A program made the translations under genes and the position numbers. The notes beneath the pieces were generated by a model. The model searched no databases and was not told where the DNA came from. It saw nothing but the letters and a program-made list of their open reading frames with translations. From Sphagnum compactum (taxonomy: Eukaryota), in contig OZ234493.1 of NCBI GenBank assembly GCA_965153455.1, positions 28,634,213 through 28,698,212 of the forward strand: DNA of 64,000 nt. The letters are read 5' to 3'. Shown here one piece after another: positions 14,601 through 49,500 of this stretch. How positions within the stretch are numbered: the stretch's first letter is position 1; each line of letters opens with the position of its first letter.

Positions 14601-17600
14601 CATGCAGTTGAAAGAGGTAAGATGGAGGGCAACTTGCCTTCAAGATGTGCTGAGGCTAGCTGCTCAGACACAAGACACACACACTAACCAGCTAGAATTA
14701 TATGAAGCTGGTATGTGAGAACATGAGAGCGTGCAAACACAATCACAATGCAGTTACCATGGGATGGAGTGTACCTTGTATCAACAGCTTTCCATGTCAA
14801 TGTTTCCAAGTCCAGAATGTTGAGATCATTCATAAGGCGCCTCTTGGAATCCTCTCCTCCAAACATAACTAAGGTTGAACCCACAAGTGTCACTGATTGG
14901 CCACCACGTGCAATCTGAAGCCCCAAAAAAAAAGCACCCTTCTTAGTCTCTGTAAGACTTGACCTTTGCATATGGCACAATGGACCAAAGTCATGGAAGA
15001 GAGCAGAGCAAGGGAAACCTTACAGGAGTCTTGCCATGGACATCAAGAATGGTCCAGGTCATAGTATGTGTATCAAAAGCACGCACTGCATGCACACCCA
15101 AAGGACACACAGCACACAGTAGTTAGAACTAACATTCAGACAGTCAAAACTGCTTGAGGCACACAAAAAAGAAAATAAATCCAGTTCAGAATATAACCAC
15201 AGTATATATTTATATACCCTGAGGGTAATCGCCCCACCTGTTACAGTATCTACGGGTTCTTTTGAATGGCCAGCCACTGCAAGCAGCTTTGTGCCCCACC
15301 GAATCTGTACAAAAACATAATTCAGAATGCACTGGTTTCCAAAACACTGCTACCGTAGGGATTTGCAACAAACATGAGAAGACGACAGGGTTAAAAAAGG
15401 ATTTTCCAAAATCAAAATCCTTGAAGCTGCAGATGGGTCCTTGACCAATACACCTAACTGTGTAGATGACATACCAGGCTATGTCCTGCACATGGAGGGA
15501 ACCAAGAGGACAATTGTTTCTGCTGTTCTGAAAGAGGTGACTGAGGAACTTTCTCCACCTTCGACCATTCAAAAGTTTTCAGATCAAGAAACTGCAGATA
15601 GCAAAACACCCACATGAGCAACAAAACTGGGGGTCTAAGATTTTAACTTGGGAAAACCATAGGGAATCATCATGGTCGTAAAATCTTGTAACAAGTTCCT
15701 CAGTCTTTGGAAATCAAACATCAAAAGATGTGTAGTGTTGTGAAAAAATGACTTGTGTACCTGCACATCATTTAAGTAGCGACCATTGTGATTGCCTCCG
15801 ATGACATATAGCTTATTATTTACAACTTCTGCTGCATGCTGCAAGTTCAAGTACCCACCCAAACATTCAGCAAAACTCAACATTAGTCCGCATCCTGCAA
15901 TGTGAATGTACTGAACACTGACCCAAATCTGAGTCTCAGACAACCATAATCCCCTAAACACCTCTCCAACCAAATTTGCTCTCTCCAGACATTCACTGAG
16001 CATTTTGGACCAAAAGCATGATGAGAAGCCTTTTGACCTAACGAAAACACTGCCAGTCATCAATGCCTTCACCCAGAACATCAGAGGTAATTCTGCCGCT
16101 GAGGACTGGTCTCAACCATACACTCTTGAGAAACAGTTTGACAGATTTATCCAAACAGAAGGGACAACCATAGTTGTTCATCACCTGGTAGCGAGCTGCT
16201 GGTCTTCGACCGGTCACAGTTGGCAACACCCACTCATTGTAAACAGGAATTGCCCTCACTCCCTCTGCAACTTCCTCCACTTCTGTGGTGTTGAAAACTC
16301 CATTTAGTTTCAAGAGGCCATTTGATGCAGGTGGAGCCTCTACAACAGGCATCTCATCATCCACTTTATCCTCCCCATTCAACTCCACTGCCACAACCAG
16401 CTTCTCATTCTCTGTTTCTCCTTGTACAGCAGGTTCTGAGTCCACAATAGGAGGGGGTGGCTGGAAGATATCATATATCATTAGTGGGCGAAATGACCAT
16501 GATACACGTTTGACATGGCATCTGCCAGCTGATCAAGACACCTATCTAGATGGAACAGAAAATGGTACATCAAAGCTACAGATCAGAAAAAAAATAAAAT
16601 TACTTTACTAGTCCAATGATGAACAGCAACCTACATCATTCCACACGACCTCTTTGTCTTGCTCTTGAGCTTTTGACCACCAGCTAGGATCCTCCTCCTA
16701 TCAGGACAAGCAGACAAGGAGAGAGACATGAGCCAATAGGGAATAAAACTGTGCAGATATGAATTACAAATGTGAGGTAAGCTTCAATTCAACCATACAC
16801 AAAAGCACTTCTCAACCTGTAAAAATCACCCTCTTTCATGGTGGGAAAAATGGTACTGAAAACAAAATACAGTGTGTGCAGAACCCAACAACCTCTAGTG
16901 TTCGAATGAAGAGCCTCATAGCCTCCATTGAGTCCATCCGTCCCAGTTGGTTCCAACTACAAAAGAAACCCAAAACAATCATAGAACAGAATCAGCAGCA
17001 ACTAAAAACCTGCAGAGCCCTCAGTAGATCTCAATGTGATGGTGAAAAAAAATGCTAAGAAACATGTAAGGTACCATATGACACAGATGTTGTACCTTGT
17101 CCATTTTGCAAGATCAATCACATTCCAACTCCAAGGTTTCGGCACGTTGCAAGGTCCCACTGTTGCCTGCTCAGATTAAGAACACTCCCAACTTCTCAAC
17201 CTTTGTAACACCACTTCCTCTGATCTGTACTTCTCTAAACATGCAGTTTTCAATGCAATCCTTTTGAGTGTCTCCTTGCTGCCAAAAAGTCCTTGCATGC
17301 TAGGAGCTTGCAGTTCCATCACAATGAAATTTCCATAAAATGGTCTTATCCCAAGGAATAAGAGCCCTATAACACACAACCATAGGACTGCTGGGAATAC
17401 AGCATCTGCCAGGATATCCAAATCAATTTGCTCCTTGAAGGAGAAGGACCCAGCAGCAGACCTGTTTGTAAAGCCCATAAAGGAGAAGGGTGGTGTCATC
17501 TGACAACCCAAGAGATGATGACTTGAGTGAATCAACATTGCCAGGTGAAGATGCAGAAAACCCTGCATATGCTGCTCCAGCATAAAACCGATCTGGATAC

Positions 17601-17635
17601 GGCAATGTTGCTGCTGCCATCCCCACAGTCGTCAT
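11627..17635 (-). CDS. ACBP4: Acyl-CoA-binding domain protein with kelch repeats and a C-terminal coiled coil (class IV ACBP, ACBP4/5-like); about 18 exons
   Basis: ACB domain: LPYPDRFY...LLYGLYKQ|ATVGPCNVPKPWSW...MEAMRLFIRTLE|EEDPSWW (exons 17635-17462, 17166-17096, 16956-16893, 16697-16650). Kelch motifs LYVIGGNHNGRYLNDVQ, RGGQSVTLVGSTLVMFGGED, PRSDHVAA, PRAGHAGATIG, AFGGYNG. C-terminus VDVAELRQKLQSMETLQKELDLLQRQKAAS...GVWSWLAG. An alternative ATG lies at 17620. Confidence 0.95.
12520..12672 (-). repeat. 51-bp x3 in-frame tandem repeat inside an ACBP4 exon
   Basis: Units 12520-12570, 12571-12621 and 12622-12672 encode ATREKLALALKVNEELQ / ATQEKLALALKENEELQ / ATREKLALALKVNEELQ. Confidence 0.95.
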
Positions 17636-25199: not shown

Positions 25200-25765
25200 T
25201 AGCACATACTATTACATAGCCTACCTACTAAGTAACATAGGTTTTTACTAGGTACCTATTTAGATAATATTTATTTTAAGTACATATTTAGATAACTTTT
25301 AAATAATTATTTAAATAGCCTATTAGGTAGCTAGTGGGTATGTAGGTATGTATGTAGGTACTTAGTAAGTAGGTAGGGAACACTAAATAGGTAGCTAGGT
25401 TTGTGGGAAATAGGTATTTACTACATAGGTACATAATGAGTAAAGATTAAGTACTTTCTAAGCAGGTAGGTAAGTAGATAAACAATACATAAATAGGTAG
25501 GTAGGAGGTAGGTAAGTAAATAAATAGGACATAGGTAGGTAGGTAGATAAATAATATATAGGTAGGTATGTAAGAGGCAGGTGGGAAGGTACCTAGTAAT
25601 TAAATAAGTAGGTATGTACATGATAAATAGATAGGTAGGGTGCATGTACATAAAAAGTAAATAGGTAAGTATGTATGTAATAGGTCGGTAGGTAAGTAGG
25701 TTCCTAATAATTATATAGGTAGGTATGTACATAATAGGTAGGTACATAATAGGTATATATATGAC
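25200..25765. repeat. Degenerate (TAGG)n-derived simple-sequence array
   Basis: Recurrent AGGTAGGTAAGTAGGT/ATAGGT motifs over ~550 bp. Confidence 0.85.
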
Positions 25766-26904
25766 TAGTATATGTAATTGTTTTTTAGTTGTGCGCGCCA
25801 CTTGCAACTAAAAACCGCCTAGTTACATTGGACAAGTTGTAGGCATCCCTAATTGCATACGACAATAGATGTAGGATGAAATCAAAATAAACATACATAG
25901 TTTTATTTATATGCATTGAATATGGTCTATGCAATTATTGTGCAATTATCAAAATTTTAATGGTATAATTGTTGGCCAATATATATAGTCCATTGACTTG
26001 AGACCCATTAACATTGCCACGTGGCATGTTTAAAAATTGAATATATATATATAATTACAATTATAATTATAATTTATGAAAATTCTCATTCATATATTTT
26101 AGCCATTTATCGAATCAATCCCAACATTGCCACATGTTGAAGTATGGAATATGGTCAATGTTGACCACAAATAAATCTGACCATCTTTGTTAGTGGCATT
26201 GGAGGTGCGATGTGACATGTTCAAGGATTTTTTTTCCAAAAATCATGTTTAAATTGCATAGTAAATAATTTAAATTGCGCACTTTCACAAATCATATTTT
26301 ACCACATGTTTTTATTATAGATTATCAAGTATATGAACATTTAAATCCTTTTAAAGAGGGAGGAAATAAATCTCAAACGTTTATCGAAGGATGCAATGAT
26401 GCCATGTCTAATGCTATGTTTGTTTTTTCATTTTAGGGTTAGGGTTTCTAAGCTTTTTATGCCTTATGGTGCCCATGTTATTTTGGTAACACTAATACGT
26501 TTTTAAGGTTTAACGCTTAATCAACATTTCTTTGTTACGTGTCACACATTGGTTCGATATAAAAAGTTTAAGGTTTTATGATATTAACATGTGACGTGCT
26601 AAAATTTAAGGGTTATTTTTAACATTATGTTGATCTTGTTGGTTTAGGGCTATCCAAAGCCAAATAAGAATTAAACATTGGGTTAAGCATAAATTACCAT
26701 GTGTAGATTAGGGTTTAAGGTTTATGTCTTAAAATTATAAAATGCACAAGGACTAAATGCAAAGGAAGTTATATTTTCCAACTTTTTTGCATCCAAAACC
26801 AAGTGTCCATCCACATATATGTGTAGATCATATATTAAGAGACAAAAAGTTTTTGATGTAATATGTGTATAGAGTTTGTGTAGTGAATTCCTCAAAACAA
26901 CACC

Positions 26905-27779: not shown

Positions 27780-28860
27780 TGTTTTAAATATCTTAAAATA
27801 CTTTATGCTGTATTTTATGTCATTTTAAACTACTTTACCTATTATAATTTGTACCTTAAGTTATTATGTTACTATAAGTTATTATAAATTATTATACCTT
27901 TGATTATACTATAAACTATTATAACTTATTCTATCTTAAGGTATTTTAACTTATTATAATCTTTTATTTTAAATTATTTTAAATTAAATTATTCAACAAA
28001 TCCTAGGTTATACCTTAGGTTATTTTATTTTAAGATAATGTATGTTATTTCATTATACTTTAAGCTATTCAAGGTCATTATATTCTATATTATTAGAATT
28101 ATATCCTTAGGTATAAGTTAATGTATAATAATTAAAATTACCTAAAATAAAATATAAGGATTTAAAGTAAAATAACATATATAAGATTTACATATAATAA
28201 TTTAAAGTGGAATAACTTAAAGTAGACTAATATAAAATAATCCATAATAACATAGAATAACTAAAAATGGCATATGGTAAAATAACCAATAATAACTAAA
28301 AATAACTTGTGATATAATAACTTAGAATCACTAAGAATAATCTTCAACAAAAAAATCTAAAATAACCAAAAATAACTTAGAATAATCAAGAATTGCCTAA
28401 AATACAATAACTAACAATAATTTATGATAAAATAACAAGTAAATACCTTTGGTAAATGACATTCAATAGCTAAGAATAACATGTGAGACAATATCTAAAA
28501 ATATATATTAAATAATCAATAATAACTAAAAACAACTTATGGTAAAATAATATAATTAAAGATAACCTATGATAGAATAATCAACAATAACCTATGATAA
28601 AATACCAAAAAAACCAAAAATAGCCTATGATAAAATATCCAAAAATAATCAATGATAAAATCATTTATAATATTTAATAATAGCCAATGGTAAATTAATT
28701 CAAAATAACCAATAATAATCTAAGAAAAAATAATTTAGAACATAAAACAATAATTTATGATAAAATAACAAAAAAATGCTATGATAATATAACATAGAAT
28801 AACCAACAATAAAATAACCATTAATAGCTTATGGTAAGATAACATTCTATAAATACTTTC
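27780..28860. repeat. AT-rich ~25-bp-unit satellite in foldback arrangement (T-rich arm ~27780-28110, A-rich arm ~28120-28860)
   Basis: AAATAACCAATAATAACTTATGATA-like units. TTATACTTTAAGCTATTC (~28033) is the approximate reverse complement of GAATAACTTAAAGTAGAC (~28210). Confidence 0.7.
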
Positions 28861-29891: not shown

Positions 29892-30622
29892 GTAATTGTT
29901 CATTTTTGTCGCCATTGTGAGAAAAATGCTTGTGATAATTTTGTAGTTAATATTTTTGCGAAGGATTAAATGCGATGCAGATACTCGATGCAAAAATAAT
30001 GAAAGCTCAAAAAATGCTAACTATTCATTGTTGCAAACACTATGAAAGAAATATTTGTAATGGCTTCGCAATTAGTTTTTTTCTGTTTTGCACGCATTAA
30101 GTGTAATTATTTAGTGGAGATACTTGATGCAAGAGTAATCAAAGCTCAAAATACATGCCTTCTTTGTTGAAAAACATGGCAGTACACAACAATTTTTTGC
30201 TTCTCCTTAATTTATTTTTCTTTTGAATTTAAATGAATTCAATTTTGACATTGTTGTGCAATTGATTTTATAAAATTAAAAATATTATCTATTTTCTATG
30301 GTAGTATTTAAATTAGGAAATACACTTTACCATAAGATGGTATCTACTACTAAAAGGCAATAACAAAGAGGTATATTTAATATATTTTAGGTCGAAAATG
30401 AATAAAAAAATCACTATAAATAGTATGCATGAGTGACATGCATTGTAGCTTTATGGTAGGAAATAGCCACAATGGGTTTATAGGCACTATAAATGATGGG
30501 TAATAACCCTAAAATGTTTATAGGCATTACAAATATAAATAATAATCATAAAATGTTTGTAAGCACTATATATGGTAAACATCAATTAAAGGAGGTCTAT
30601 AAGTGATTGAGTTTTTTTTCAG

Positions 30623-31854
30623 GTCTACAAAGGTGCGAAGCATGGTGCCGCCATAACGAAAGAAATCTTTCAAGGTCTAAACGTCCTCCGAAGCTTCAAT
30701 CGACGGAACAAATGCATGCAAAATGATGGCCACCATCTCCCCATTGTGGATCAACATAGAGTGTTCACAAATCTCTTGAAAATCCTCGAGATTCGGATAA
30801 TGTCCCTTGTTTTTTCCTTTGGAGATGAGGTCGGGATGCCCATGCTTATTACCTTACGCACGGAGTTCGGGACACTATGCCCGGCAGCACGAAAATGTCG
30901 GATAATGGAGGCATTTTCCTGGGCTCCCCAATGCTTGGTGAAGCTTAATTTTGTGTTCCTAACAACAATCCGTATCAAATTACGAGGAGTACCTTCACAA
31001 TCGACTTAAATGTTCTCCGGAATCTCAAATGGCGTTATTTGGGCACAGGTTTTATCGTGGCGATCTCATTGTGAACAGGTCGATACTTTGTAACCAGGAT
31101 GGATGCTCATTCAGAAATTTTTATTTTATTTTATTTTTCCCCATGGCGCGTGAAATTCTTTCCTTTTAGGTACCAGCACAGCACGAAAAGAAACGCAGGA
31201 GACAAAAGGACCTGGTCGCAGGAGGAACTGGAACGGTCTGCGGATGCTTAGGCCACAAAATTTGTGCAGACAAATTTGCGTCCCCAGCTTGAGTCGTGGT
31301 TGAGAGAGTTGGACAGCTTTTTCCCTAAGGAATTACCATTTGACACCTGTAGAGTGGGAAGAAATTGTTTCACAACCATGGCGGTCACTGAAAACTACAA
31401 GTCCACACCACATAGTGACAGGGACTTGTGCAATTCTGTGATCTCTTGGTTTTTGGAAGGTGAGTGTTCTTTGTAACTTTTGTTTATTTTAGACACTATG
31501 AGCCTTGTGGAAGGGGAAAAAAAAATGATTGCATACCTTCCTCCTCACATTTCTTCATTGGGAACTCGGTTGGAGTTGGACAGGAGAAATAACGTCAGGA
31601 GGGCAATTTGTGTTATTCTGCTCAAACAAGGGACTGTCATACTCTTCCGGTCTGCATGGCTTCAGCATTGCACCATGCCCATCCGAGGGGAAGGACGGCA
31701 ATTGGGGTGCGCATTGTACCTGCGGAAGCAGACGCTCTCCCGATACACAGCTCGACAAGCAAATCTGTCTCGAATCAATCGAGCTCTAAACGAATTTATG
31801 CGAATAACAAGTTCAAAGGATAATAGTCACTACAAGACACTAGTTGAAACATGA
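30623..31854 (+). pseudogene. TET/JBP-family Fe(II)-dependent nucleic-acid dioxygenase-like gene, disrupted. Exons ~30623-31048, 31170-31459, 31584-31854.
   Basis: Phase-consistent GT-AG introns 31049-31169 and 31460-31583. Reconstructed core: MALFGHR|YQ...CFTTMAVTENYKSTPHSDRDLCNSVISWFLEG|EITSGGQFV(fs)KQGTVILFRSAWLQHCTMPIRGEGRQLGCALYLRK. HxD at 31411-31419 and distal His at 31666. Lesions: frameshift near 30960, TAG at 31249, frameshift or deletion near 31615. Confidence 0.8.
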
Positions 31855-31915
31855 TAATAGATTAATAAAACACAAATTTCTACTTTTAATTTTTTTTCAT
31901 TTTTATTATTATATT

Positions 31916-32130
31916 ATGGGTTCTTTTAAAATTTATAAACGATGTTACAAGATGATAGCTACAACATGACAGTAAGTAGACAAAAAATAGTCCCTATCTT
32001 TAAGTTTTCTTCATTTTTTTTGTTATTTTATGGGTTTTTATAAAGTTTATAAATGATGTTACAAGATGATAGTTACAACATGACGATAATCAAACAAAAA
32101 AAATCCCTACCTTTAAGTTTTTTCTATTTT
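31916..32130 (+). repeat. ~114-bp direct duplication just downstream of the TET/JBP-like stop codon
   Basis: ATGGGTT.TT..AAA.TTTATAAA.GATGTTACAAGATGATAG.TACAACATGAC occurs at 31916 and 32030. Confidence 0.85.
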
Positions 32131-32189
32131 TCTAATTAGTCTTTTCCTTGTTAATAATTAAGTTCTTGGATCCCACAATTTTGTAAGAA

Positions 32190-32620
32190 TAATCATTAAT
32201 AGCCTATGATAAAATAACCACCAATAACTTATAATATAATAAGGAGTAATAGTCTATGATATAATAAGCATTAGTAACTTATAATATAATAACAAGTAAT
32301 AGCCTATGATATAATAACCATTAATAACTTATAACATAATAATCACTAATAACCTATAATATAATAAACACCAGCAACTTATAATATAATAACGAGTAAT
32401 AACCTATGATATAATAATCATCAATAACTTATAATATAATAACCATTAATAACCTATACTATAATAATTTATAATATAATAACCAGTAATAACTTATAAT
32501 ATAATAACCAGGAATAACATATGATATAATAACCATTAATAACCTATAATATAACAATCATCAATAAATTATGATAATATGTTTTATAATAACCAATTAT
32601 AAATTATGCTGAAATAATGT
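32190..32620 (+). repeat. 25-bp tandem satellite (consensus ATAATAACCATTAATAACCTATGAT)
   Basis: Unit starts at 32261, 32286, 32311, 32336, 32361, 32386, 32411; related to the A-rich arm at 28120-28860. Confidence 0.9.
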
Positions 32621-35600
32621 TTAAAAAAAACAATGGTATATAATAAAATAGCTTATGGTAAAATACTAGAAAATTATAAAAAAAACCTAAGTTAAAAAAA
32701 ATGTGCATAATAATATGTGATGACAAAAAAATATCATTCATTTAAATAATGATTCAATGGTTAAAAACTTGTTCCTTTACTATGATAAAAGGAGGTGAAG
32801 GGTTTAAAGTTTCATATTATGCATTTTAGGTTGGTCGGCTAAGTTTTTTGCATAGTTTTGTTAGCTTAGTGAATTTTTCAAAATGTTTAACTTGTGTTCG
32901 AATTAAGTGTTAATGAATTTATTATTGATGATTTAAATATTATTCAGTTTATTATTATTATTTAATTATTACTAAATTTGATTAACTATTGATGAACTCT
33001 TTTGTCCGTAATGATTTGTTTATTAAAAGATTATCAATTTTCAACATGGTAAATTTATTAAATTTTATTCAAAATGTAATGAAACATAAAATGAACTTGG
33101 ACGTATATTGGTGTAGTGTGTTCACAAAATGTCAAAGGATAGGCGCGATTTTTTTTTCCTTTTAATTTATCACTCATTTAATTCCAAATAAATCCCCATT
33201 CAACACCTTATTATTCATGTGCATTATGAGGTGTTTATTGTTACTTACAAGGTTAAAAAATGAAAGTGAAAAATGTATAATTTACATCTGATTTAAAAAA
33301 ACAATTACATAATTTAAACATAAACACATAATTTTTACACAAAACATTTCACATACAATAATCTTATAATAACCTTTGCACAATAATTTTTTTTTGTTAG
33401 TAATACATCTAACATTAAATGTTCATTGGTGCAAATGTGTTAAAAAAACATGAGACATAAATTGAATTGAATATAACATAAGGAGCTAGACACATGCTAG
33501 TTTCAAATTTAAAAATGAAAAAAATGACAATTTGGTTGTAACACATGTTTAACTCATAGAGCACCTTTTTTATTATATGATAATTATGCTATATACAACA
33601 TGTCCCACCATCATCTTAATAGGTTTCAATATTAATTAATGTATTTACGTAATTTTTTTATAATTCTTATTTTAATCATGATCATTTTAAATTATGGAAA
33701 GGGATGACGAAAATGTAAAACGCATTTGTTTATATGTGAACATTACCATTAAATTATGGCTAAATGATTGTGAGCCCAACAATCCGTTCTTTTACCTTCC
33801 AATAATTATCCCATATTGTTTTTTTTTTAAATTTAAGTTTTTATGTTTAAAATATCATGTGGCATTATATAATTGCACAATTAAAAATATTTTTCTTAAT
33901 TCGATGGTGTGGATGACAAAACATAGATTAACAAAAATTCTCAAATACTTATGTTTAAGTTATCACATGGTACCATTTTATTTGATCATGTTTGTCACAT
34001 GATATTAACAAATAATCAATAAGTTTTGTTATTTATATTTAAAACTTAAATTTGAATCATTGAATGTTGTTTATGAACATGTTGAAAATTATTATAATTA
34101 TGGAAGACATAAGTTGTATTGAATTTTTTAATTGAAATGTGCATAAAATTAATAACATAATTAACATGACTATTCGGGTTATTGAATCATGTGGTCACAT
34201 TTGGCACATGTTTCATAACCCAGGTTTTAACATTATGATGTATATATATAATATTAAAAGTTAAATTAATCAAATAAGTTCAAAAAATACATATGTTTCA
34301 AATTTCAAACCATTTAACAATATTTTTTTCATGCATTAATAATGAAAATAAGGTTTAAGGTTTTAATACCATATAAATTTGGACACATTTCAAATTACAC
34401 AACTCAAATATTTTCATTACACACATGTGATTCAAATTTCAATTATTTGTAAAAAATAAAAAATAATTCATACAAATTTAAATGATTTATGATTTAAATT
34501 TGTTTTATCTAATTTAATTTAAAATTTTAATAATTTTAAAATTATGAAAATTAATATACTTTGTTAAAGAAATGGGACTTAAGTTTGAAATAATTTAATA
34601 TAATCTAAATGTTTGCAAATGCATGTTTTTTAAAAAATTATTCAAATACAAAATTTCTCATACAGTTTATTAGAAAACATATAAAAAATTGAGTTGAACA
34701 TTCAATTAATTTGTGAAAAATGCATCATGACTCAATTATTTACATTGTGTGTATAAGGCATATTTGGACACTATGAAACTTCAACATTAAATATATATAC
34801 AATAATGTTTAAAGTAACCCCATGTGTAATTAAATAAAACAACAATTCAATAGGTTTTTAAAATTATAATGATGATTTAAGAAACATAACATTTAACAAA
34901 AGGTAACAACTTATCAATTGTACAATGTTTCACAAATTGTATAATAATAAAATGTGTTTTCTGAAAAAAAAAATCATTTTCAAATTGGTATGTTAAACAA
35001 ATCGTATTATCAAATTCCATATGTAAATTGCTTAGCTATTTTGTTTAATGTAATTCTTATAATGGTTTTTTGGAATTTTTATCAATAGCCGAAAATGATT
35101 GTCATCCATAAGATGTTAAAAAAAAAGATCATTTAAAAAAAGATTTAATCAAATTTGACTATAGATAGAATATGAAGTACAAATTTTTTAATCATCTTTT
35201 GACCTTTTTTTATTAAACATTAGAGACCAAGTATGAAAATAAGGGAAAAAATTACTTGATTTTTTTTCATTTCTAACAATTGAAACCCTTTAAAATCATT
35301 TCATTGTTGAATTTTAAATTTTAAATCTCTTTTTTTTGACAAAATTTCACGAATAGAAACAATTGATCTTTTGGTAATCAAGAAAAAAAAGTTGACATCA
35401 CGAATGAAAAAGGTTAATCTTTTGGTAGTTCAAACTCCAAAAACAAATTCATCACTTGAACCATTCTCATTGTTTTAAGACGATTTGATTTCAAAGCTTC
35501 AACACGTTTTTCAAAGCTTAGTCATTTATTGATGGCAAATACTAATCCTGAGAATTAAATACAAAGAATGAAAACTAGTTTCAAGCTCTACCAACAAATT

Positions 35601-37228: not shown

Positions 37229-37480
37229 TGTGTTGATTTTTCTTCTTGAAGAGCGTGAGGTTTGTTTTCAGTTCGATGATCGGGTGTTCTGCATAGCAGA
37301 GGAGACGATGTGTTGAATTTTCTTCAAGAACTTGAGGTTTGTTTTCAGTCAGATGATCGCGTGTTTTGCTTTGCAGACAGAGGAGACGACAAGCTCTTTC
37401 TGAAGAGACATTTTTTGAGATTTTTTTTCTTCGAGAATTCGAGGTTTTTTCTCCATCGCATGATGATCCGGTTTTGTCGC
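37229..37480 (+). repeat. ~80-100-bp degenerate tandem repeat x3 in the RFWD3 promoter/5'UTR, followed by (GA)n at ~37523-37565
   Basis: TGTGTTGA.TTTTCTTC..GAA...TGAGGTTTGTTTTCAGT..GATGATCG.GTGTT at 37229 and 37309, with a weaker copy near 37418. Confidence 0.7.
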
Positions 37481-37566: not shown

Positions 37567-37672
37567 GTTATTGTTTGTTTAGGTGTTTCAGATTCTCGTG
37601 TTTTTTTTCTCTGTGTATCTGTTTTCTTTCTGTGAGAAGAAAACCTTGGCATGCTCAAGAGAGTGGTTGAGG

Positions 37673-40600
37673 ATGAGGGAGGCTGAGGCTGCTGCTCCTC
37701 CTCCTAAGCGTTTTCGTCTCTCTATCAAGCGTCATCGGTCGAGTCTCCCTCCCCCGATTCCCAAAGATCCCGCTGATATACCGGCAACCTCTGCTATCGA
37801 CCATTTGAGCGATGGATCATCAAGGAGGAAGTCCTTGGCTGCGAGCTCGCAGCACGGGCCTTCTTCTTCTCCTTCGACTGCGAGAGGAGAACCAGTAGAC
37901 AATGCTGGAGACGTGTATCGTACTGCAGATAAATCTGTAGGAGCTTCACCCTTGAGCTCAGATGGATTTGCAGCCGGGAGCTTGGCTGCCGAGGAAATCT
38001 GCTTATTACGTCGATGTTCGTCCTCAGCCTCAGATTCCGGACCCTCAGAAGTTGCTGCTGCTGGTACTGTTCCAAGCTCAGGCAAGGTTCCAATCCTTCT
38101 TCTCTTCGGCTAATTCGGTACTAAGGCAAGTAGATCTCTCAAAGTCTCAGAATTACAGACTTTTTTCTCTTTTGGTTTCAATAGATGCAGCACTGTAGCA
38201 GCAGTCAGTGAATGCAAGGAGTGGAATTTGTGAAGCTGGTGATATGGATCTAGAGATAGCCTGACGATTGACTTGGGCATGGCAGAAGCAGAGGGGAAAA
38301 AGGAGAAAGACGAAGACTTTTTGGTACAGTGTTCACAACGCCTTCCATCAGAGTCAGCGGCGGCAGAAGTTCCTACTCATGATGCCGTAGTGGCTTTGGA
38401 AGAAGAAGAAGAAGAGGCAAGAGAGAATTTCAACTTCGTCCTAGAGCAGCAGCCTCTCGATGGAATCCCTTCCACACTGACGACATTTCATGATCTCTTG
38501 AATGAAATGGAGGCTCAGGAGTTGTTGGAGCATGAACCAAACGCTCCAAGCGACGCTGAGCAACTGGATGATGTGAATAACATTGCTGCAATGGATCCTG
38601 TCACCATTCCTGAAGATCCTGTTGTGATTCCTGAAGCTATGAGTGAGTTACTCAGTCTTCTTGGTACTGTGGACAATGCAAGTTTCAGAACAACTTTCCA
38701 GTTCCATTAACCCTTGATCATGGTTTCTCTGATGGAGATCCACTCTCTATCAGAGAAACAATGTTCCACTATTTTATCACTTGACAGTTGGAGCTTTGTG
38801 CCATGATCTGATGCTCTCTCAGTGTTGATATGATGCTTCTTATCATGCAGACAATGAGCCAATGGTTCAATCAAATACTGCTGCATGGGCACTGACAACT
38901 TTGGTACAAGAGCAGCAGCTCAGAGCACCTGAGGTGGTTGAAATCTCAGATGAAGAAAGGGCGGACAATGGGACTGCCGGAGTGAATACGGATATTGATG
39001 ATCTGGGAGGAGGCAATGGGTCTGGGCAACTGGATGATGATGATTTTCATGCTCCTTCCACCAATGCTGATTTTGCAGCTTTTGCTATTCCTGCAGGTGA
39101 GTAGAAATCTGAGGGTAGTGGATTATGTGAGAATCAGAGTTTTGTGGGCACTTCAGTTCTTTATGTGCAAGATGTTGTGTTTTACTCTTATATTGTTGAT
39201 GATTGTTGCAGGCAGTTTTAAGGATATGGACTCGAAGCCTGATCAAGTTAGCACTCAGAGGCCAGGAGATGGGGAACCAGATGTGGTCACATGTCCAATA
39301 TGCATGGAAGCATGGACGAGCATTGGGAGTCACCGCATTTGGTATCCTTTGTTTGCATTTGTTAAACCCTAAACCCATTCGTAGATATTTCCAGTGACAT
39401 GCTTGATTTCAGATGACTGGATTTTTCCTTGAGAGCTATAATATATCAAAGATGAAGTCAAATCTTGTGTCCTCTCTCAAGACATGAGCCTTAGGTTTAT
39501 CAATGGATCTCAAGGTGAGGTTTTGGCATTTGCAGCTCATTGGCATGTGGTCACTTGTTTGGAAAATCATGCATCAAGCGCTGGCTTAGACAGGCAGGCA
39601 AGAAGCAAGGGAAGGTACTACTGCCTTGAATTTATATTTTTCTTTGCAAGCTTCAACTCAGCAAGGGTATGATCAGTGAAAATAAACAATGTCACACCCC
39701 AATACAGTGCTTAGAAGGTATGGGAAACAACAACAATGCCTACGCAAGTATACACAAATGTTCATCCAGGAATATAGCCTGAAGTTTGCCATCACATTTT
39801 GTGGTGAACTTTGAACTTATATCAGGTGGTTTTGTGTTGTCTAGTGTCCACAATGCAACTGCCGGGCTAGAGTTGAGGACCTGCGTACGCTTTATGTTCC
39901 ACGAATTGCTGTAATTGATGGGGAGGGCCAGCAGATAATGCAAGTATGGAGCCTTCTGATTTGAAACTCCAGATTTTAAGAATGATTTGCTTGTGTCTAA
40001 GCTTAGGATTAGGTTTTTGGCGCAAGTCTAAGACTTGGGTTTTTTTTGTTGTTGTGTGAGAAGCAGGAAGTTGGGGTTTTGCGTGCTCAAAATGCACAAC
40101 TCAAGATGCAGGTATGCATTGTGAAAATCAACAGGTTAATGTGATATTCAGTTTCTCACCACTAGGTGAGAAAATTGTGTACAAAGAAGGGGTTGCAGTT
40201 GTGCCTACAAATCCACAGTGGACAGGCTTGCATACTTTTGCATGGCTAGTAGGTTTAAATCTAACAAACACTCTTTTAAAACCTGCTCTGTATGTCTGCA
40301 GATTTCTGAGCTGATGGAGGAGATTCACTGTTCACAGGTTTGTACTGTGAAATCTATTGATGTGGTTTACAAGAGCAATGTTAGTTGGAGGATATGTCAA
40401 CCAAGCATGTTCTCAAAGACTTGTTTGTTCCTAGGGTAGCATGATAGGGCTTTTAACTGTGTTGTTATACTTGAGGGACAAAAGCTTGATCTAGACAAAC
40501 ATTAATTACTGACTCATATGTGCTTGTACTTGTCTCTGACTGTGAAGATGTCTCATATCTTCAGCTGCAATTTCAAATGTTTGTCCAATGCTCTACACTC

Positions 40601-43309
40601 ACAAGTCTACAGTGGAAACAGCTTTGATAAGCTGTTTGTCTTCATCTTTGTGCAGGCTCTGCTTTCAGTGCTCTGTCCAGAGCAGCATGATGCTCTCAAT
40701 GCATTTCAATGGACACAATGTCAGCAACTTCAGAGAACACCAGAGAGTTTGAGAACCCTGCATCAACCCATACAACCCAGAATTATACCTGTTCCACCCT
40801 TACATCAGGTGGCTCACGAAAACCACAGGCAGTTTCCAACAAACATAGGTCAGGCTGACTTGAAAAACTGTAGGAAGTACCAGTCTCACAAACTACAGAC
40901 TCAATTTGCCCAGCATTCTTCTTGCAACTACACAGGAGGATCAGGTATGCGTAATCAAGCATCACCTGAGCTCAGGGTTTTGCAAGAGAGGAACATTTGG
41001 GGGCAGTCTTATGCCCTGGAGTCTTCAAGAATCTCAGAGTGTGCTGGAATTCGAGAACCCAGACAAGGAAAAAGGGATAGCACCCAAGCCAGGCCATTGC
41101 GGACATTTTCTTCTTTGGCATCAATTGGTAGTCGAGGCCTGAAAAGCACCTTTGTCCTCCAAGTAAGTTTAATTTTCATCATCTGAAGCACAGATTTCTT
41201 GCACAAAAAGTCATCCAGTTCAAGGCCTTTAAGTCACATGTCAAAGTCCAATTGTGCTGGAGTACGTTTGAAGTGTTGGGGGTGATGCTTCACTCATTTA
41301 TATTATTTTGGCAATGTCTAATACCAGGATGAAGTGCCATTGCAAGGTGCAAAAGTTTTTGATGTGAATGCACATAGCCAATTACTCCTTGTATCACACA
41401 AACCAGCTGATAGTGGGGCCAGCTCTGGCCTGATGAAGGTGCGACACTTTATTTCTCCCTTGAAGATTTATGAATGCCAATTAATTTCTGATGTTTGAGT
41501 GGATTGCCTGACTGGTAGCTTCTGAAGTATGATCTGGAATAACAGAGAAGGGTGGAAACAGATGAGCTTGATGGCATTATCTGAGGGTGAATGCATAGAT
41601 GTTCCTTCAGGAACAAGTGTCATCCGTGATATTCGTATTGCACCATCTGGCACTAGGGCTCCTGGAAGACTGGCATTGGTTGCTTCCTTAGGCAAGAAAT
41701 TGACTGTCTTCAGGTATGGGCACTTTTTTTGGCCCTCTTTCTCAATCTTATTTTGTGCTTGTTATTCAATCATCCTGGAAATCTCTGGATGAGTTTATGT
41801 ATTTTATGGATCTTGTCATGCTCTTGCTTCCTCATAATATCAGTGGTAGAAACTGGCTGAACAGATTTGTGTTATGTTTCTTGCAGTTTAGAGAGCAATA
41901 ATGTGGTCATCACATATGCTTTGCAGGTGTGCAGTCCTTACTTATTTCCTTTCTGACAAGAGCTGTGGAATATTTTCCTTTCCTCAGTTTTGCATACAAC
42001 TATTTATTCTTCATTTAGACCAAGGTTTTTGGAACTGATGGAAATGGGACCCCTCAATTGCAGAGCCCGTCCTGGTCATGTGCATGGGATCCCTGTGATC
42101 CGAATCAGGTCTACTCTGGTTTGCAGGTACTAAGATGGATCATCTTGAACTCATTTACTGTCTAGAGCTTCATATTGTTGGTAGCCTCAATCATGTACAG
42201 AAGCCCTTTCCCTCCAAACTGGGTGCTTCCTGTTTGAATGCTAGAGTAGTGATCTGTAGCCAACATATATGACATGGAAGTCAAAATTTGCAGAATGGAT
42301 CACTGCTGGTGTTTGATATGCGCCAAACAGGAGCACCGATAGCTACTCTGAAGGGTCCTAGCTGCAACCCCATTCACACACTCCAGCATGTTCCAGAGCA
42401 TTCAAGATTGGCTGAACAGGGCGAATCTGTCAAGGAGACAAGTGGCCTTCTGAGTGCATCTTGCAGCAGCCTCTGTTTCTGGTCGGACATCGGCTCTTCA
42501 AATCTCCAAACTGATGGGTACAGGCAAGCCCATTTTGTGCAAAATCCTCTGCAAGAACAAGTTTTTTTTCCCAGTAATGTCATGTAATATAATAAACCCT
42601 GGATCTTGCCTACGTATGTTGTTGCTATTATATTCAACTTTTGAGCTCGTCATTTTGTTTTGCCATTTCTTAATGCAGGCCAATGTGTCTGTCACAACCA
42701 GCAGAATCTTCAGTCTGTGTCTCACTTGCCTACAATGCAGTGATTGACATGGCTGTTGCATCCTTCAGGCCAAAACCAACCCAATTTGTTGATGTTGAAG
42801 CCCGATCCACATCATCTCCCTCACCCACTTTGTCCTCCCCAGCAGAAGTACCTAGTCAGCCCACTGACTCCTTAGGTTTGCCTGAAGACATGGGGCTATT
42901 ACCTTCTCACATTTCTTACAGCAGGAAACCAAAGTCTCCATTCCCTGCTGAAGACAAGGATAGAAGTACAGTGCTTCATGAACCAAGTTTTTTTTGGGAG
43001 CAGCAAGGTCGCATGGTTGGGCACAAGAGCCAGAGAGTGATGTCAAGGTCTGCAATTGTCAGTGAATGGCAACCTGATCAAGCCTCAGGCAGCAGAACAA
43101 ATCCTGAGACTGGCTCCTTGTATGCATTTGGAGATGAGGGAAGTAATTCTGTCTGGCTTTGGGACTTGGTTTCGAGAGCCAAGACCCAGTCCCTCATTCC
43201 TCATCACTCTCCCGTGCTTGACATCAGGAGTGTGCATACTGCTGGAGCTGATATTCTTGGCTGTATTAGTGAACGAACTTTGCAGGTTTACAGAAGGTTG
43301 CCACCATAG
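37673..43309 (+). CDS. RFWD3: RING finger and WD40 repeat E3 ubiquitin ligase, RFWD3-like; multi-exon, with a long acidic low-complexity N-terminus
   Basis: RING split over exons 39212-39341, ~39535-39613 and ~39845-39943: [34 protein letters not shown]...CPQC, the RFWD3-type CGHLFG..CI..WL signature. WD40-like exons IRDIRIAP..LALVASLGKKLTVF, WSCAWDP..NQVYSGLQNGSLLVFDMRQT, LYAFGDEGSNSVWLWDL..HHSPVLDIR. The start and the first exons are less certain. Confidence 0.88.
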
Positions 43310-44344: not shown

Positions 44345-46567
44345 TTAAGAAGAAGCTACTCCTGACGGTAGAGTATAAACAGCGATTTGGGGCAAAAGAA
44401 CAGATCCGATATAAAGCTTTCCATCATACTCTTCCACTTCACTTGGCAATCGAACCACTTGGCCTGTCTGATCCTCAAGGACCTCCTTCACACTCCCGTC
44501 AGCACCATAACGTATGATCATTGCATGTGGCTTCCCAATGGCAAGCTGGTACAAGTAGCTTTGTGGGATAGGAAGTCGACCCAGGAGATAGCGTAGCCAT
44601 GGAAGAGTCCCCAGATAAGTGTCAGGCGCGTAGCGAACCGCATGCAAAGCTACCCAAAAATCACCGTTTTCATTGCGTCGGACATTGTCTGGCCATCCTG
44701 GCAAGATCACAAATGTCTCATGTGTGCCTGCCTTCTCTCCCTTCAGCCAGAATCGCACCAACCTGTCCTCAATTCAATGGCAAAAACAGATGATCGAATT
44801 ATCAAGACAAAGCACTTGTATCCACAAAGAAATTGCAAAGAAATATCTCTTTGACAACAATTTGAAGGTTGTTCGACAATGAGTGCAATCATGTAACTTC
44901 CTCATGAGAGGGTCACTCACAAGACATCAAGACAAGCACCAGGGTTGTAAAGTTGCTGATTGCATACTACATACAGGATTGCACATGGACACTGTGTAGA
45001 TCATGAAGAATTGAAGCTCAAAACGTTGTCAATCAGGCACCAGTAGTTATTTAGTTGTCAGTGCACTCACAAAGCTGAGTTTGAGGAGCTCCAAAACCAA
45101 ATTGAGGAAGTTTGAAATTCTTAAAGTTTCTGGGATTATTAGTGATATACAATGAGTTCAAGATTGAGTCTATTATCCCTGAAGAAATTGTGGAAGATTT
45201 TTCTTTTTCTTTTTCCCATTGTACCTGCCATTTCTGGTGTCGCAAATCACAATAAATGTGCCATCTTTACTGACAGCCAGCCCATTGGAAACACGCAAAT
45301 TGTTGATGAGAACGGTGGTTTGTTTTGTGGCAGGATCATACTTCACAAATCTGCCGGTGTCATCTCCTTCAAAACTTGCAATGAAAAATTGCCTGTCAAA
45401 AAATTTCCGCACCGAAATCAGTTTCAGTTTCTGAGATAAAGAAGAAAGATTCTATAGCAGGAGCAGATCCCATTACCCATCTTGCCAGTTCCATTGTACA
45501 GATTCTACAGCAGCAGATCCCATCAACAGTTCCTCAATTCCAGTGCAAGAAGATTCTACAACAGCGGATCCCATCAGCATATACTCAATTCCAGCATAAA
45601 AGATTCCCATCATCAACATGTCCTCCTCAATTTCAGTGTCAGATTCTTGAAGAAATTCGTGACAGAAGTTTCTTCATGTTCGAGAGACCTGTGAAGGTCC
45701 CTTATGCCTGAGTATTATCATCTGTTTTTTGTTTGTTCCTTCCTTACCTGCGATGCCATTTGGTGCTGCTGTCAGTGAAATACAAGACGCCATCTTCATC
45801 AAAGTCAAGATCATTGCAGAATTTCATGGGGACGCCGTCAATCTCTGCAACAACGGACTCTGCCTGACCTCCTTCCGGTCCCACCTTGAGTATCCCCAAG
45901 TATGCATCTGCAATCCAGAGATCGCCTGTCTTCTTGTTGAAGCGCAGACCCAAGGGACGCCCACAAATATGCTCAAATGCCAGATTCGGAGCTGGCGGAT
46001 TCTTGGGGGCACAAATTTCTGACCTAATTTGTATGACCCACCACCACCCCCACAAACAAATTGCACACAGTTTTCAACCTGAAGAATCAATCCTTCATTC
46101 AATAAACAAAACACATGATCCACAGTCTCAATAAACCCTCAACTGTAAGAACTCACAACTGGCAGCAGCAGCAGCAAGAAGAACACCGACCCAAGAAAGG
46201 GATTTGGGACTATTTTTGGGTTCAGCTACCTGTTTTTGGAAGTGTATGCAAATGTGGACCATCCAAGCTCTGGGCCATCATATCTGATGACTGTGCCATC
46301 GCTGACACCCGTATAAGGCCCTCTTCCTTGGGAATCAAACACGAAGCTCTCGGGTCCAAGAAAGGGGCCTCTCCAAATCTCTGCTTTCTGGAGCTTGTTC
46401 TCGGTGTCCCTTATCAAATTGTCCATCACATGAGACGGAGCTGGTGCCAAATACTGTGGTTTGAAATTCTTCTCTCTTCCTGCTAGTGACAGCTTCCATG
46501 GATCAGTACCCAAATACCATGCTGCAGCTGTGATGACTAACAACACGATTATACTCATTGTTGCCAT
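44345..46567 (-). CDS. Strictosidine synthase-like protein (SSL/LAP3-type six-bladed beta-propeller). Exons 46567-46230, 46023-45748, 45392-45225, 44762-44345.
   Basis: N-terminal hydrophobic anchor. Motifs GPESFVFDSQGRGPYTGVSDG, EHICGRPLGLRFNKKTGDLWIADAYLG, NDLDFDEDGVLYFTDSS, NGLAVSKDG, LPGWPDNVRRNENGDFWVA, SEVEEYDGKLYIGSV. Phase-consistent GT-AG introns. Confidence 0.95.
45445..45650. repeat. ~50-bp degenerate tandem repeat (about 4 copies) in SSL intron 2
   Basis: AGATTCTA.A.CAG..G.AGATCCCAT.A.CA..T.CTCAATTCCAG recurs at ~45447, 45500, 45551, 45601. Confidence 0.75.
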
Positions 46568-49500
46568 CTTGATTGATTCTTTCTTTCCTCCTCTCCTGCT
46601 GCTTCCCTTACCTCCCACTCCTGGCCCCCCCAAAAGACCTTTCCAAGCTCTTCTCTTTTGTTTGTTGCTGCAGAGTACTAATTCAGACCTTCAAGCAAGT
46701 TCTCTCTCTCTCTCTCTCACTCTCTGTCATTCCCCTGCTAAGCAAACAAAGCTCAAAGCTAAGAAGCTCAGAAGCTCAGAGCTCAAAGCTCAAAAGCTCA
46801 GAGCTCAAAGTTCAAAGCTTCTACCACTCCTCCTGCTGCTTGCAGATCTTGAGCTTTAATGATGCTCTGATATCTGGCAAACGGAAGATTTAGGAGTGAA
46901 GAAGACTCAGGATGATGAAGAAGAATAAGAAGAGGAAGACTGAAGACTGTGTGAGTCAATGTGAGAAGTCAATTTGGGTCTAGTCAAAGTTGATACACAG
47001 ATGGACCAAACCTACCATTACTGTTGACTCATCATGAGTCCATCATGAGTCAGGAACCAGAAAAATAATTATCCTAAATTTAAATTACCATGATATTTAG
47101 CATTGAAAATTAAGTAATAATAAAATAATAAAATGATAAATAAAATAAAAGTCAAATTAAAATTTGAAATAATTGAAAATTAGTAATGATGATACTATCA
47201 AATTTATTAAATCGTTTTATCATAATAGAAAATTTTAAGAATAATAAAATAATCATTTTTAATCATTTTTTAATAGTAGGAATAGTAATAATGATATAAT
47301 GGTGATTTCTTTAACACCCTGTTTTGGTTTTGGGGTTTTGTTGAATTGTTTGATTTTGCCACTTTAAAAGGAGAGAAAGTTCATAGTTGAACAAATATGA
47401 TACTTTCATTAGGGTTTTGAGAACATTAAGAGTCTCCAGTTTGACCTTTTGTATTCAATGTGTGATTTTGGTGTCATATGAGGATGACAAAGTAAGGCAT
47501 GTGCTTTTGGACATTGAGAACACAAGGAGAGAGAGAGAGAGAAACCCATTGAAAGAAACAAAGAAAGACTTTTTTTGGTAAATAGAAAGGGAAATATAAA
47601 GGCATACTTTTACTTCAAATCACACACACAAATGTCTAGATTCTTATGCGAGGTAACGAAGGGTCATTCTCGCGGGGTTTTGGTATATATTGTAGTTAGT
47701 GCATTCTAGACAATAGCTCATTTGTGATAGATGACAACTCTTTTGTTTTAGGTTTTCTTTGTCATTGTTCATTGTCATTTTGTACTCACGAGTCCTCTTT
47801 GCATTGGGTTTTTACCCATTTTTGTTGATTGCTTGCTTTTATTTTTTCTTTGGGTGGTTTCTTTTTGCCTTGTACTCTTGTTGGATGGGTTCCTTGATTT
47901 TTATTTACATGGTTTTTCTTCTTTTTTGGTATAGGAGAAGAGTTTTAATTTAGGCCCTTCACATGTGTAAAGAATTGATAGTTTTTTTTGTTTTTGGGAA
48001 GCTTGGAGACATCATGCGACATAATGTGACTCTTGTTTTTTTCAATCTAGGAGAGCTTTCGTGCAATTACATTGTTTCCATTCATTTACATTGTGCAATT
48101 CTTGTTTTTTACGACTTGGAGAGTTTTTGAGAGCTTTTATGTAACTAAGTTGTTCCAATTCATCAACATTATGGTGATTTTTATCTTGGAGTTTGTCATG
48201 GTTTTTATGTTCTTCTTTTTTGTTTCATGGTGCTTTTCATGCTTTTATTTAGTACTTTTTGTGCATTTTTTTTTTTTGGGGCATCAATTTTTCACTTTGT
48301 TTTTTCTTTGCATTTTTTGTTTTTTATTATATGTTTGCCTATGTTCAGGCGAGGACTAACATTATTTGATCATTTTGGTCATTTTGTTTCTTTAAGTGTG
48401 TTAGTTTAGTTGGTCGGTTAGGTTTCAATTAGTTAAGGATAAATCAAGTTAGCTTAATTGTTAAGGTTTAGATTTCAAATTAGTTCAAATGTGAATAAGG
48501 TTCAAAATATTATGTGGATAGAATATAATCCTAGTTTGTGTGATTTAAAATCACTTTTGATGACTTGAAATTCCAACACTAGTGTTATATGCAAATTTCA
48601 TATGTTTTGTACATGGTGTTAGTTTTTGCAATTTTGTGTGAAAATGTTGGATTTGAATTCCTTGTTTTCTTTGCAAATGAGTGATTATTTTGGTTTCGAC
48701 ATGGTGTAACAATCCAAATATTTTCATGTTATGTTTTATATGTGTGATGATGGTCATAGTTGTAAACGTCAACATAGGAATGCATGACATGTTTGTTTTG
48801 TGCTTCTTGTTTTTTATGCAAGTGAGGGTGAACATTGTTGCATTTTTTAATTCGTTTTATTATGTAGGTGTGGTTCCCATTACAATAGTTCTTTTTGAAG
48901 ATTATATATATATAGTTGTTTGTTGTTGTGTTTTTTAGTTTAGGTTGTTTACATGTTATGAACATGTGTTTTTTCCTTTTTTGTGTCAATGTTGACATCA
49001 ATGCATAATTGTTGCATTGTGTCATGTCATTTTCATTTTGTGTCAATGCTTGCCTTATGAAAGTGGTTTTTTCGACTTATGCAATTTTGAATTTTTTTAT
49101 TTTTTTTAATGTGTTGGCGCCAACATTTTTATCATGTGGTGGAAAATGTTAAGTTTTTGAGTGAACTTTAACATCTAGGTTGGTATTGTGATTTTTTTTG
49201 GTATGTTTTTTCATCGTTTTTTTCTTTTTGTTTTAACAATTTCCACGATTAACAAACCAATTTTGAAAAGCTATGTAATGAGGGTTTTTCAATATCATTG
49301 TTGAAACCCTAATTGATATTTTTCTTACACTATTCACACTATTCATATTTAGTGAATTGATTGATCTATTAGTTTTTGGACACATCATCTACATCATCTT
49401 TGACTACAAATATTGGTGATTTGTTGTGGTCTAATGATGGGTTTGAAATTTATGTGTAGTCTCCTTGTTTTCTTAAATCTAATGAATTGCATCTTGAAGT

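Follow-up and report, generated by a model that had tools for sequence, protein, structure and literature searches.

A 64-kb stretch of Sphagnum compactum DNA (assembly GCA_965153455.1, contig OZ234493.1; hereafter the window, meaning all 64,000 nt analysed) carries at 30632-31815 a gene remnant of ~1.19 kb that is matched by Sphagnum relatives. We conclude that this locus is likely an inert pseudogene of a dispersed, multi-copy Sphagnum family of TET/JBP dioxygenases, nearest to CMD1 (5-methylcytosine-modifying enzyme 1) of Chlamydomonas reinhardtii. Membership of the family in the superfamily of 2-oxoglutarate (2OG)-Fe(II)-type dioxygenases is close to certain, and its placement within TET/JBP is very likely. 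The locus had been described in an earlier note, made from the sequence alone, as a dead copy of a TET/JBP-like gene in a land-plant nuclear genome.

When the relatives were compared with the 64-kb window by tblastn, they matched at the pseudogene locus only, with E-values from 1e-27 to 1e-91; this similarity is far above chance. From the spliced gene models of the relatives we defined four coding parts, exons A to D. Exon A encodes a zinc-finger-like N-terminus (C-x2-C-x12-H-x5-H; GHRCDxCxWxLxPGTDxxQHNSGLLH) in P0033, P0038, P0048, P0049, P0057 and P0059, all outside the window, and the gene models of these six relatives join this C2H2-like exon to the dioxygenase exons. A Pfam scan of exon A of the relatives gave no match, and tblastn at E<=10 found exon A nowhere in the 64-kb window. 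In the relatives, exon B reads NIKLHSTKYWG...MALFGHRFCRxDLTVDR, exon C reads YQHPTK...FTAMAVTENYHSTPHTDRDLSNSVISWFLEG, and exon D, of ~115 amino acids (aa), reads ..SGGEFAFPTHxMFFKPRHGTIILFRSAWLQHCTMPV...RRQLGCALYLRKQTL.... The corresponding features of the window are listed here by position and strand.

30611-31009, plus strand: spurious antisense open reading frame (ORF) of 132 aa, on the opposite strand of the true exon B
30632-30958, minus strand: 5' part of exon B, inverted, encoding NTKLSFTKHWG...GGTMLRT (tblastn with P0050 and P0037)
30677-30679, minus strand: in-frame TAG in exon B, where relatives have Q (EHVQTLG) and the alignment shows SEDV(stop)TLKDF
30810-30815, minus strand: 1-nt indel in a homopolymer (T6 on the plus strand), shifting the exon B frame from -2 to -1
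30959-31010, minus strand: 3' end of the upstream intron, within the inverted block, with the acceptor AG at 30960/30959
31011-31078, plus strand: 3' part of exon B, CSPESQMALFGHRFYRGDLIVN plus the AG of a split Arg codon (tblastn with P0037 and P0050)
31079-31169, plus strand: intron between exons B and C, GT..AG, 91 nt
31170-31459, plus strand: exon C, a long helix region and the strand with the iron-binding H-S-D
31249-31251, plus strand: stop in exon C, TGG to TAG, at the Trp of ADAWAT in relatives
31460-31583, plus strand: intron between exons C and D, GTGAGT..AG, 124 nt
31584-31815, plus strand: exon D remnant (tblastn with P0015, aa 1-28 in frame +2 and aa 39-102 in frame +1)
31613-31626, plus strand: 19-nt net deficit in exon D, between GGQFV and QGT, removing FPTHKLFF and shifting the frame

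All peptide motifs quoted in the earlier note, and both of its GT-AG introns, were found in the window. The plus strand encodes MALFGHR at 31029-31049, within the 3' part of exon B; CFTTMAVTENYKSTPHSDRD, with H-S-D at 31411-31419; GGQFV at 31598-31612; GTVILFRSAWLQHCT, with the codon of the distal His at 31666-31668; and RQLGCALYLRK at 31696-31728. Both splice junctions are confirmed by spliced Sphagnum proteins, the B/C junction (..TVDR/YQHPTK) by P0037 and the C/D junction (WFLEG/E..SGG) by P0009, P0022 and P0038.

The two ends of exon B lie on opposite strands. In tblastn, P0050 aa 1-55 aligned to 30978-30814 (minus strand, frame -2) and aa 52-115 to 30823-30632 (minus strand, frame -1, with a stop inside), and aa 116-139 aligned to the plus strand at 31011-31082. 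P0037 behaved likewise: aa 9-113 ran along the minus strand from 30978 to 30632, aa 117-139 lay on the plus strand, and aa 139-228 continued on the plus strand at 31168-31440. The minus-strand reading ..LIRIVVR/NTKL resembles the N-termini of P0050 and P0051, which read through an intron, and the right inversion breakpoint falls at ~31006-31010. Because GGTMLRT runs directly and without interruption into CSPES in the relatives, and the inverted and direct pieces are adjacent without base loss, we conclude that a block of 379 bp (30632-31010), made up of ~50 nt from the 3' end of the upstream intron and the first ~109 codons of exon B, was inverted without loss. The junctions of the inversion are at 30631/30632 and 31010/31011, and beyond the outer edge of the inverted block there is no gene homology. 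A tandem repeat of 39-40 nt (2.6 copies; 30453-30579) lies directly upstream of the left breakpoint. Simple inversion of a 5'-truncated copy or fold-back repair could have produced the arrangement. Twin priming, the 5' inversion typical of long interspersed nuclear elements (LINE-like), had been considered since the two pieces meet without a gap and keep the parental order; it was rejected as unsupported, given the retained introns, a 3' truncation that falls within coding sequence and the lack of a poly(A) tract.

The inversion changes how the beginning of the gene is to be read. The earlier note had reconstructed a protein of ~330 aa, the first ~130 residues of which are in fact the antisense of the inverted exon B, to which P0037 and P0050 align on the minus strand; the first of its two frameshifts is the inversion junction. 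The 132-aa ORF on the plus strand had no match in Pfam. The T6 indel is visible where P0069 reads SSPEENKGHY and the window gives SSPKEKTRD in one frame and SKGKNKGHY in the other. At the 3' side, homology to the gene family stops at ~31815, while relatives go on for ~40 aa (..RRREKGKMGPLEG..). Directly downstream of this point, at 31880-32138, lies a tandem repeat with a 114-bp unit, present in 2.3 copies with 82% matches.

Exon B, exon C, the larger part of exon D and both inner introns persist at the locus, which contains no collinear ORF with a start, intact exons and a stop. The block inversion, the two TAG codons, the two indels that break the frame and the loss of both gene ends leave this copy irretrievably dead and unable to make an enzyme. 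The note's verdict of a dead copy was thus right, and its count of two frameshifts and one stop was too low. We also considered that the gene is alive and that the lesions are errors of assembly or sequencing, or signs of unusual splicing. Splice sites and catalytic motifs are indeed intact at the locus, and a 1-nt change in the homopolymer at 30810-30815 sits at a typical site of sequencing error. Six independent kinds of damage would have to be explained in this way, however, among them a 379-bp inversion within an exon, two TAGs and a 19-nt deficit that removes a beta-strand, and the start exon was not found in the 64-kb window. We therefore consider a live gene extremely improbable and treat the locus as a pseudogene.

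Relatives were collected by word-index searches, one phmmer scan and one cluster look-up. A word-index search with a 74-aa exon C fragment yielded 14 proteins (72-96% identity), the one named match being P0009 (BDL97_03G147900), a protein of Sphagnum fallax. Two more such searches, started from P0009 and P0033, gave 25 and 26 proteins, respectively, and the cluster look-up gave further family members. When a 125-aa C-terminal fragment was run by phmmer against 1.84 billion cluster representatives, 15 proteins were obtained at E<=1e-3, two of which (P0027 and P0028) are unrelated repeat proteins according to Pfam. Named matches came solely from S. fallax, S. tenellum, S. compactum, S. jensenii, S. 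balticum and S. troendelagicum, on contigs of 2.4-30.7 Mb; the remaining matches are unnamed ORFs from environmental sequence sets, many of which read through introns. A scan of 185,579 prokaryotic species genomes with a single-protein pattern query gave 148 pattern matches and 0 confirmed relatives. As judged by these searches, the family of the locus is Sphagnum-specific at the sensitivity used.

Among the relatives, the HxD motif is unbroken in 27 of 30, 12 of 13 retain the distal His, and an Arg precedes QLG in 11 of 13. The longest natural chain, P0069 of S. balticum (252 aa), includes the greater part of exon B, the HxD-bearing end of exon C and exon D in full. Every copy retrieved is partial, no single chain among them spans the whole domain, and none of the relatives retrieved is full length and intact. 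This weighs against our reading in so far as activity of any copy is conjectural, and it leaves the recently functional relatives proposed in the earlier note without a full-length example among the proteins retrieved. In P0009, the sole named S. fallax model, Tyr replaces the distal His (LQYCTMP) and the YLRK segment is absent; judging by these residues, this annotated gene is probably inactive too.

The assignment of the family rests mainly on two queries. Alignments of the relatives include A1 with 32 whole proteins (intron read-through included) and the intron-free A3 with 25 rows (four whole proteins and one unchanged part of each of 21 proteins). The A3 profile was run against 177,635 distinct PDB sequences (E<=10) and gave one match, 7cy4_A, which is CMD1 of C. 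reinhardtii fused to maltose-binding protein (E 6.7e-5, 25.3 bits, profile 192-280 to chain 700-792). P0069 alone matched CMD1 at E 2.3e-5, with an unrelated protein next at E 1.7. In Pfam, its top family was Tet_JBP (PF12851, gathering score 34.9 bits) with E 1.3e-5 and 24.9 bits over profile positions 70-164 of 164, and 2OG-FeII_Oxy_3 followed at E 6.1e-3, behind by ~470-fold in E-value. The exon C fragment of the window itself gave 12.6 bits with Tet_JBP (E 0.081). P0010 aa 25-200 matched PF20515 at profile positions 50-210 of 211 (E 3e-3). In the ESM Atlas, 23 of the 30 clusters nearest to P0009 belonged to the Tet_JBP set (top score 0.95). Exon B alone (P0037 aa 1-139), which holds no iron-triad motif, was placed with Basidiomycota Tet_JBP/PF20515 clusters at 0.76-0.82 among the matches listed, namely ranks 1-3 and 7 of 30; the tool rates such scores as leads only.

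An alternative is that the family consists of generic 2OG-Fe(II) oxygenases, prolyl-4-hydroxylase-like or acting on small molecules, whose likeness to TET would come from the shared jelly-roll core only. Pfam gave this view some ground. In the 32 rows of A1, Tet_JBP was found seven times (best E 4.6e-4) and the Tet-like PF20515 five times, next to five rows with 2OG-FeII_Oxy_5 and three with 2OG-FeII_Oxy_3 (best E 2e-4), and on these rows alone TET/JBP is not separated from prolyl-hydroxylase-like families. For P0022, a 99-aa core, 2OG-FeII_Oxy_3 (E 2e-4) came slightly ahead of Tet_JBP (4.6e-4); among PDB sequences (phmmer) the same protein matched CMD1 best (E 0.019), ahead of two prolyl 4-hydroxylases (0.065 and 0.18).

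Further results weigh, like this order of families for P0022, against a TET/JBP assignment. The Pfam gathering score was reached nowhere, the best value being the 24.9 bits of P0069, and a PDB search with the uncleaned A1 profile turned up no TET-like protein, its best match being unrelated at E 0.46. P0037, which represents the N-terminal half, had no PDB sequence match at E<=10 (phmmer) and no Pfam match. AlphaFold2 models were of low confidence, with a mean predicted local distance difference test (pLDDT) score of 61 for P0009 with A1 and of 54 for P0037 with alignment A2, and with the core below 50. Foldseek of the low-confidence P0009 model against the PDB produced no match at E<=0.001; prolyl 4-hydroxylases headed the non-significant rows (E 0.19, template modelling score 0.13). 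In a tblastn search of phages, P0022 matched generic cyanophage 2OG oxygenases at E 0.1, together with tape-measure noise, and PHROGs and NCBIfam gave nothing specific, only generic 2OG matches at E>=0.015.

The balance tips to TET/JBP because of the A3 profile and the P0069 results. With both, CMD1 was the sole PDB match of any relevance and no hydroxylase appeared at E<=10; in P0069, the longest natural chain, the order of the Pfam families is the reverse of that in P0022. The alignment to CMD1 also reaches beyond the iron triad, spanning HxD, WF, GGEF.P, H.T.P and the Y-L-R strand that contacts the base, and the Atlas results for either half lead to Tet_JBP or PF20515 clusters. The Foldseek rows carry no weight because the query model was of low confidence (pLDDT 61). 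We therefore regard a generic oxygenase as improbable. The TET/JBP-like dioxygenase of the earlier note is supported in its kinship by CMD1 and by the rank of Tet_JBP for P0069, but not to the level of the Pfam gathering score (24.9 against 34.9 bits), and the profile comparison with other 2OG families, which the note had named as a check, came out for Tet_JBP with P0069 and for 2OG-FeII_Oxy_3, with weak matches of the prolyl-hydroxylase type, with P0022.

We then read the alignment to CMD1 residue by residue. What is said here of CMD1, TET2 and NgTet1 follows PMC7854593. The iron ligands of CMD1 are His345, Asp347 and His397 (PMC7854593), which correspond to H719, D721 and H771 of the fusion chain; the resulting offset of +374 was applied to the HMMER alignments. 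The H-T-D of the family, which is H-S-D in the window copy, aligns to His345/Asp347, and the H of LQHCTMP, like the distal His of the window, to His397. The iron triad H-x-D ... H is present in this order in the window copy. The family GGEF aligns to the GGEF of CMD1. In the last strand, the Y of YLR falls on Phe416 (TET2 Tyr1902), the residue that stacks on 5-methylcytosine (5mC), and the R on Arg418, which contacts O2 of 5mC and is replaced by His in TET2 (His1904) and at the same position in NgTet1 (PMC7854593). The proposal of the earlier note that QLGCALYLRK is the terminal strand of TET agrees with this alignment.

In intact members, the H-x-D and the distal His would bind Fe(II), the Tyr of YLR would provide the stacking surface for a flipped-out 5mC, and the following Arg would contact the base. 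The aligned residues suggest that intact members may flip out 5mC and bind it in the manner of CMD1 and TET. The co-substrate pocket is less canonical. TET2 Arg1896 and NgTet1 Arg289, on the last strand, bind the C5-carboxylate of 2OG; the equivalent Arg410 of CMD1 points away from the site, and CMD1 Trp358 fills the place of the 2OG-binding Arg side chain of TET and clashes with the 2OG C5-carboxylate (PMC7854593). In the Sphagnum family the aligned counterpart of Trp358 is the W of SWFLEG. At the place of the canonical 2OG-Arg, six residues ahead of the stacking aromatic, the family has Gln, which has to be counted against a TET-type enzyme. An Arg sits one residue before this Gln in 11 of 13 relatives, and HMMER places a 2-residue gap there. 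Because of the Trp at the Trp358 position and the Gln at the 2OG-Arg position, we propose, speculatively, that the co-substrate pocket may be CMD1-like (ascorbate) rather than of the classical 2OG type. The GHRF of MALFGHRF may correspond to Arg244-Phe245 of CMD1, which is a guess, as this segment lies outside all alignments.

The surroundings of the locus are those of plant chromosomal DNA. Intergenic DNA of the window is AT-rich (GC content 0.22-0.30), with GC-richer, intron-bearing genes on either side, and at 30-32 kb, around the pseudogene, GC content locally rises to 0.376. The flanking plant-type, intron-bearing genes are the following.

7186-9044, plus strand: DUF7796 gene
12718-17631, minus strand: Kelch-repeat gene
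37583-43309, plus strand: RFWD3-like WD40 gene, with a RING-like region
44345-46690, minus strand: strictosidine-synthase-like gene

Two further repeats were noted in the window: a 128-aa ORF at ~25290-25810 (minus strand), a short coding-looking repeat (..YLLTYLPTYL..) that is probably a tandem DNA repeat, and a CT/GA microsatellite (translated LSLSLSLS) at ~37300-37420, near the start of the gene at 37.5 kb.

Fungal, algal or bacterial contamination, or a misassembly, might be suspected from the many relatives that are unnamed ORFs of environmental sets and from the Basidiomycota origin of the nearest Atlas clusters. The locus, however, has intron-bearing plant-type genes on both sides within one contiguous window, the named relatives lie on megabase-scale contigs of six Sphagnum species, no relative was confirmed in the prokaryotic genomes scanned, and a recent transfer would require a higher identity than that to any non-Sphagnum protein. 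Contamination is unlikely, to an extreme degree, because of the plant-type neighbours and the relatives on these contigs, and the window is very probably Sphagnum nuclear DNA. The land-plant nuclear setting claimed in the earlier note is thereby borne out.

The wide scatter of the copies raises the question of mobility. In Chlamydomonas, CMD1 lies inside the transposon DNA-1_cRei and most other TET/JBP genes are in Helitrons (bioRxiv 10.1101/2022.06.16.496473), and fungal TET/JBP genes are borne by transposons of several superfamilies (PMC12730594). By analogy with these genes, the Sphagnum family could be cargo of mobile elements. Alternatively, it may be an ordinary host gene family, duplicated and decaying, with the window copy a relic of a segmental duplication; the N-terminal C2H2-like exon of some relatives would fit a host regulatory protein.

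Several negative results weigh against cargo and agree with a host family. No transposase domain was found by Pfam in any of 64 flanking ORFs (>=50 aa, 19-37 kb), nor in the flanking ORF parts of the relatives, and no transposase, terminal inverted repeat (TIR) or target-site duplication was seen around the locus; inverted matches there were weak and confined to AT-rich, low-complexity sequence, none of them a convincing TIR. On the other side, copies lie on different large contigs (four models on four contigs in S. jensenii; two models each in S. compactum and S. balticum), and all retrieved copies are fragmentary, one of them, P0079, being fused to a threonine-synthase-like model. The nearest characterised relative, CMD1, and the fungal genes are transposon-borne. 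Taken together, we lean, roughly and by analogy, slightly towards mobile-element cargo, and regard an ordinary decaying host family as possible but less favoured.

Two observations touch on this question. P0079 (S. compactum) is a chimera of an exon D fragment and the C-terminal region of a threonine-synthase/pyridoxal-phosphate enzyme (PALP, E 2e-7), which suggests that family fragments were scattered into or beside host genes. AT-rich minisatellites with a 25-nt period (consensus like AATAACCTATGATATAATAACCATT) occur in the same orientation on both sides of the pseudogene, at 28160-28850 and 32147-32650, and inverted, as short matches further left, at 27857-27930. These arrays could be subterminal repeats of an element, or merely an intergenic satellite.

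Oxidised methylcytosines have repeatedly been reported in plant DNA. TET homologues are stated, in two papers on plant epigenetics, to be unidentified or not found in plants (PMC11233409; PMC13638503). We found no literature that links TET/JBP to Sphagnum or any bryophyte; an earlier listing in surveys of the Aravind group is possible. The kind of enzyme is known; the novelty lies in the occurrence of such a family in a land plant. A dead locus points here to a CMD1-like TET/JBP family in at least six Sphagnum genomes. The family makes the question whether any land plant encodes such an enzyme directly testable, and it extends to a bryophyte the link of TET/JBP with repeated or mobile DNA known from fungi and Chlamydomonas. 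A bolder proposal, that peat mosses carry a mobile CMD1-like TET/JBP family with at least one active copy, we hold only tentatively and think rather unlikely. If it were true, Sphagnum DNA would contain enzymatic derivatives of 5mC, of the 5-hydroxymethylcytosine (5hmC) type or of the ascorbate-derived 5-glyceryl-methylcytosine (5gmC) type; the statement that plants are without TET homologues would be overturned, and a land-plant system for oxidative or glyceryl editing of 5mC would be at hand. The oxidised or hypermodified bases that the earlier note considered possible in this lineage are pure inference.

Among known systems, prolyl-4-hydroxylase-type enzymes (2OG-FeII_Oxy_3; PDB 5C5T, 3ITQ) have in common with the family the jelly-roll core with HxD, GGG..FP and the distal His. 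Their matches are weak (E 2e-4 to 0.2), extend over only 28-77 core residues and fall behind when the query is a longer chain or a profile. Metazoan TET1-3 and Naegleria NgTet1 are alike in the iron triad and in the terminal-strand pattern x-x-x-x-x-x-Y-x-[HR]-K. The Cys-rich and CXXC regions of TET have no counterpart in the Sphagnum family, which in addition has Gln at the position of TET2 Arg1896 and, as in CMD1, Arg after the stacking Tyr, where TET has His. TET2 and NgTet1 were absent from the PDB sequence matches of P0022, the A3 profile and P0069 at E<=10.

With the fungal TET/JBP proteins (PF20515, 2OG-FeII_Oxy_6), the weak matches of P0010, all below the gathering score, reach N-terminal to HxD, and for both halves of the Sphagnum family the nearest Atlas clusters, among the matches listed, are Basidiomycota Tet_JBP or PF20515. 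Fungal genes are cargo of KDZ, hAT, Plavaka and Helitron elements (PMC12730594), whereas no linked transposase or TIR was seen at the Sphagnum locus; the host here is a land plant, and that paper makes no mention of moss, Sphagnum, Physcomitr or Viridiplantae. Like the Sphagnum family, the fungal genes are multi-copy and often degraded.

The closest counterpart is CMD1 (PDB 7CY4-7CY8), the sole solved structure matched by sequence with the A3 profile. Only ~90 residues align, and the N-terminal half of the family is without a sequence match. In the Sphagnum proteins the stretch from the distal His to the last strand is 2 residues shorter; they have Gln in place of Arg410, carry Asp at H+4 where CMD1 has Asp350 at H+5, and in some relatives begin with a C2H2-like exon, unlike CMD1. 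CMD1 and the family share HxD, WF, GGEF.P, H.T.P, a stacking aromatic (Phe in CMD1, Tyr in Sphagnum) and the equivalent of Arg418. Both belong to the green lineage, and just as CMD1 is cargo of a DNA transposon, the Sphagnum family is multi-copy and dispersed.

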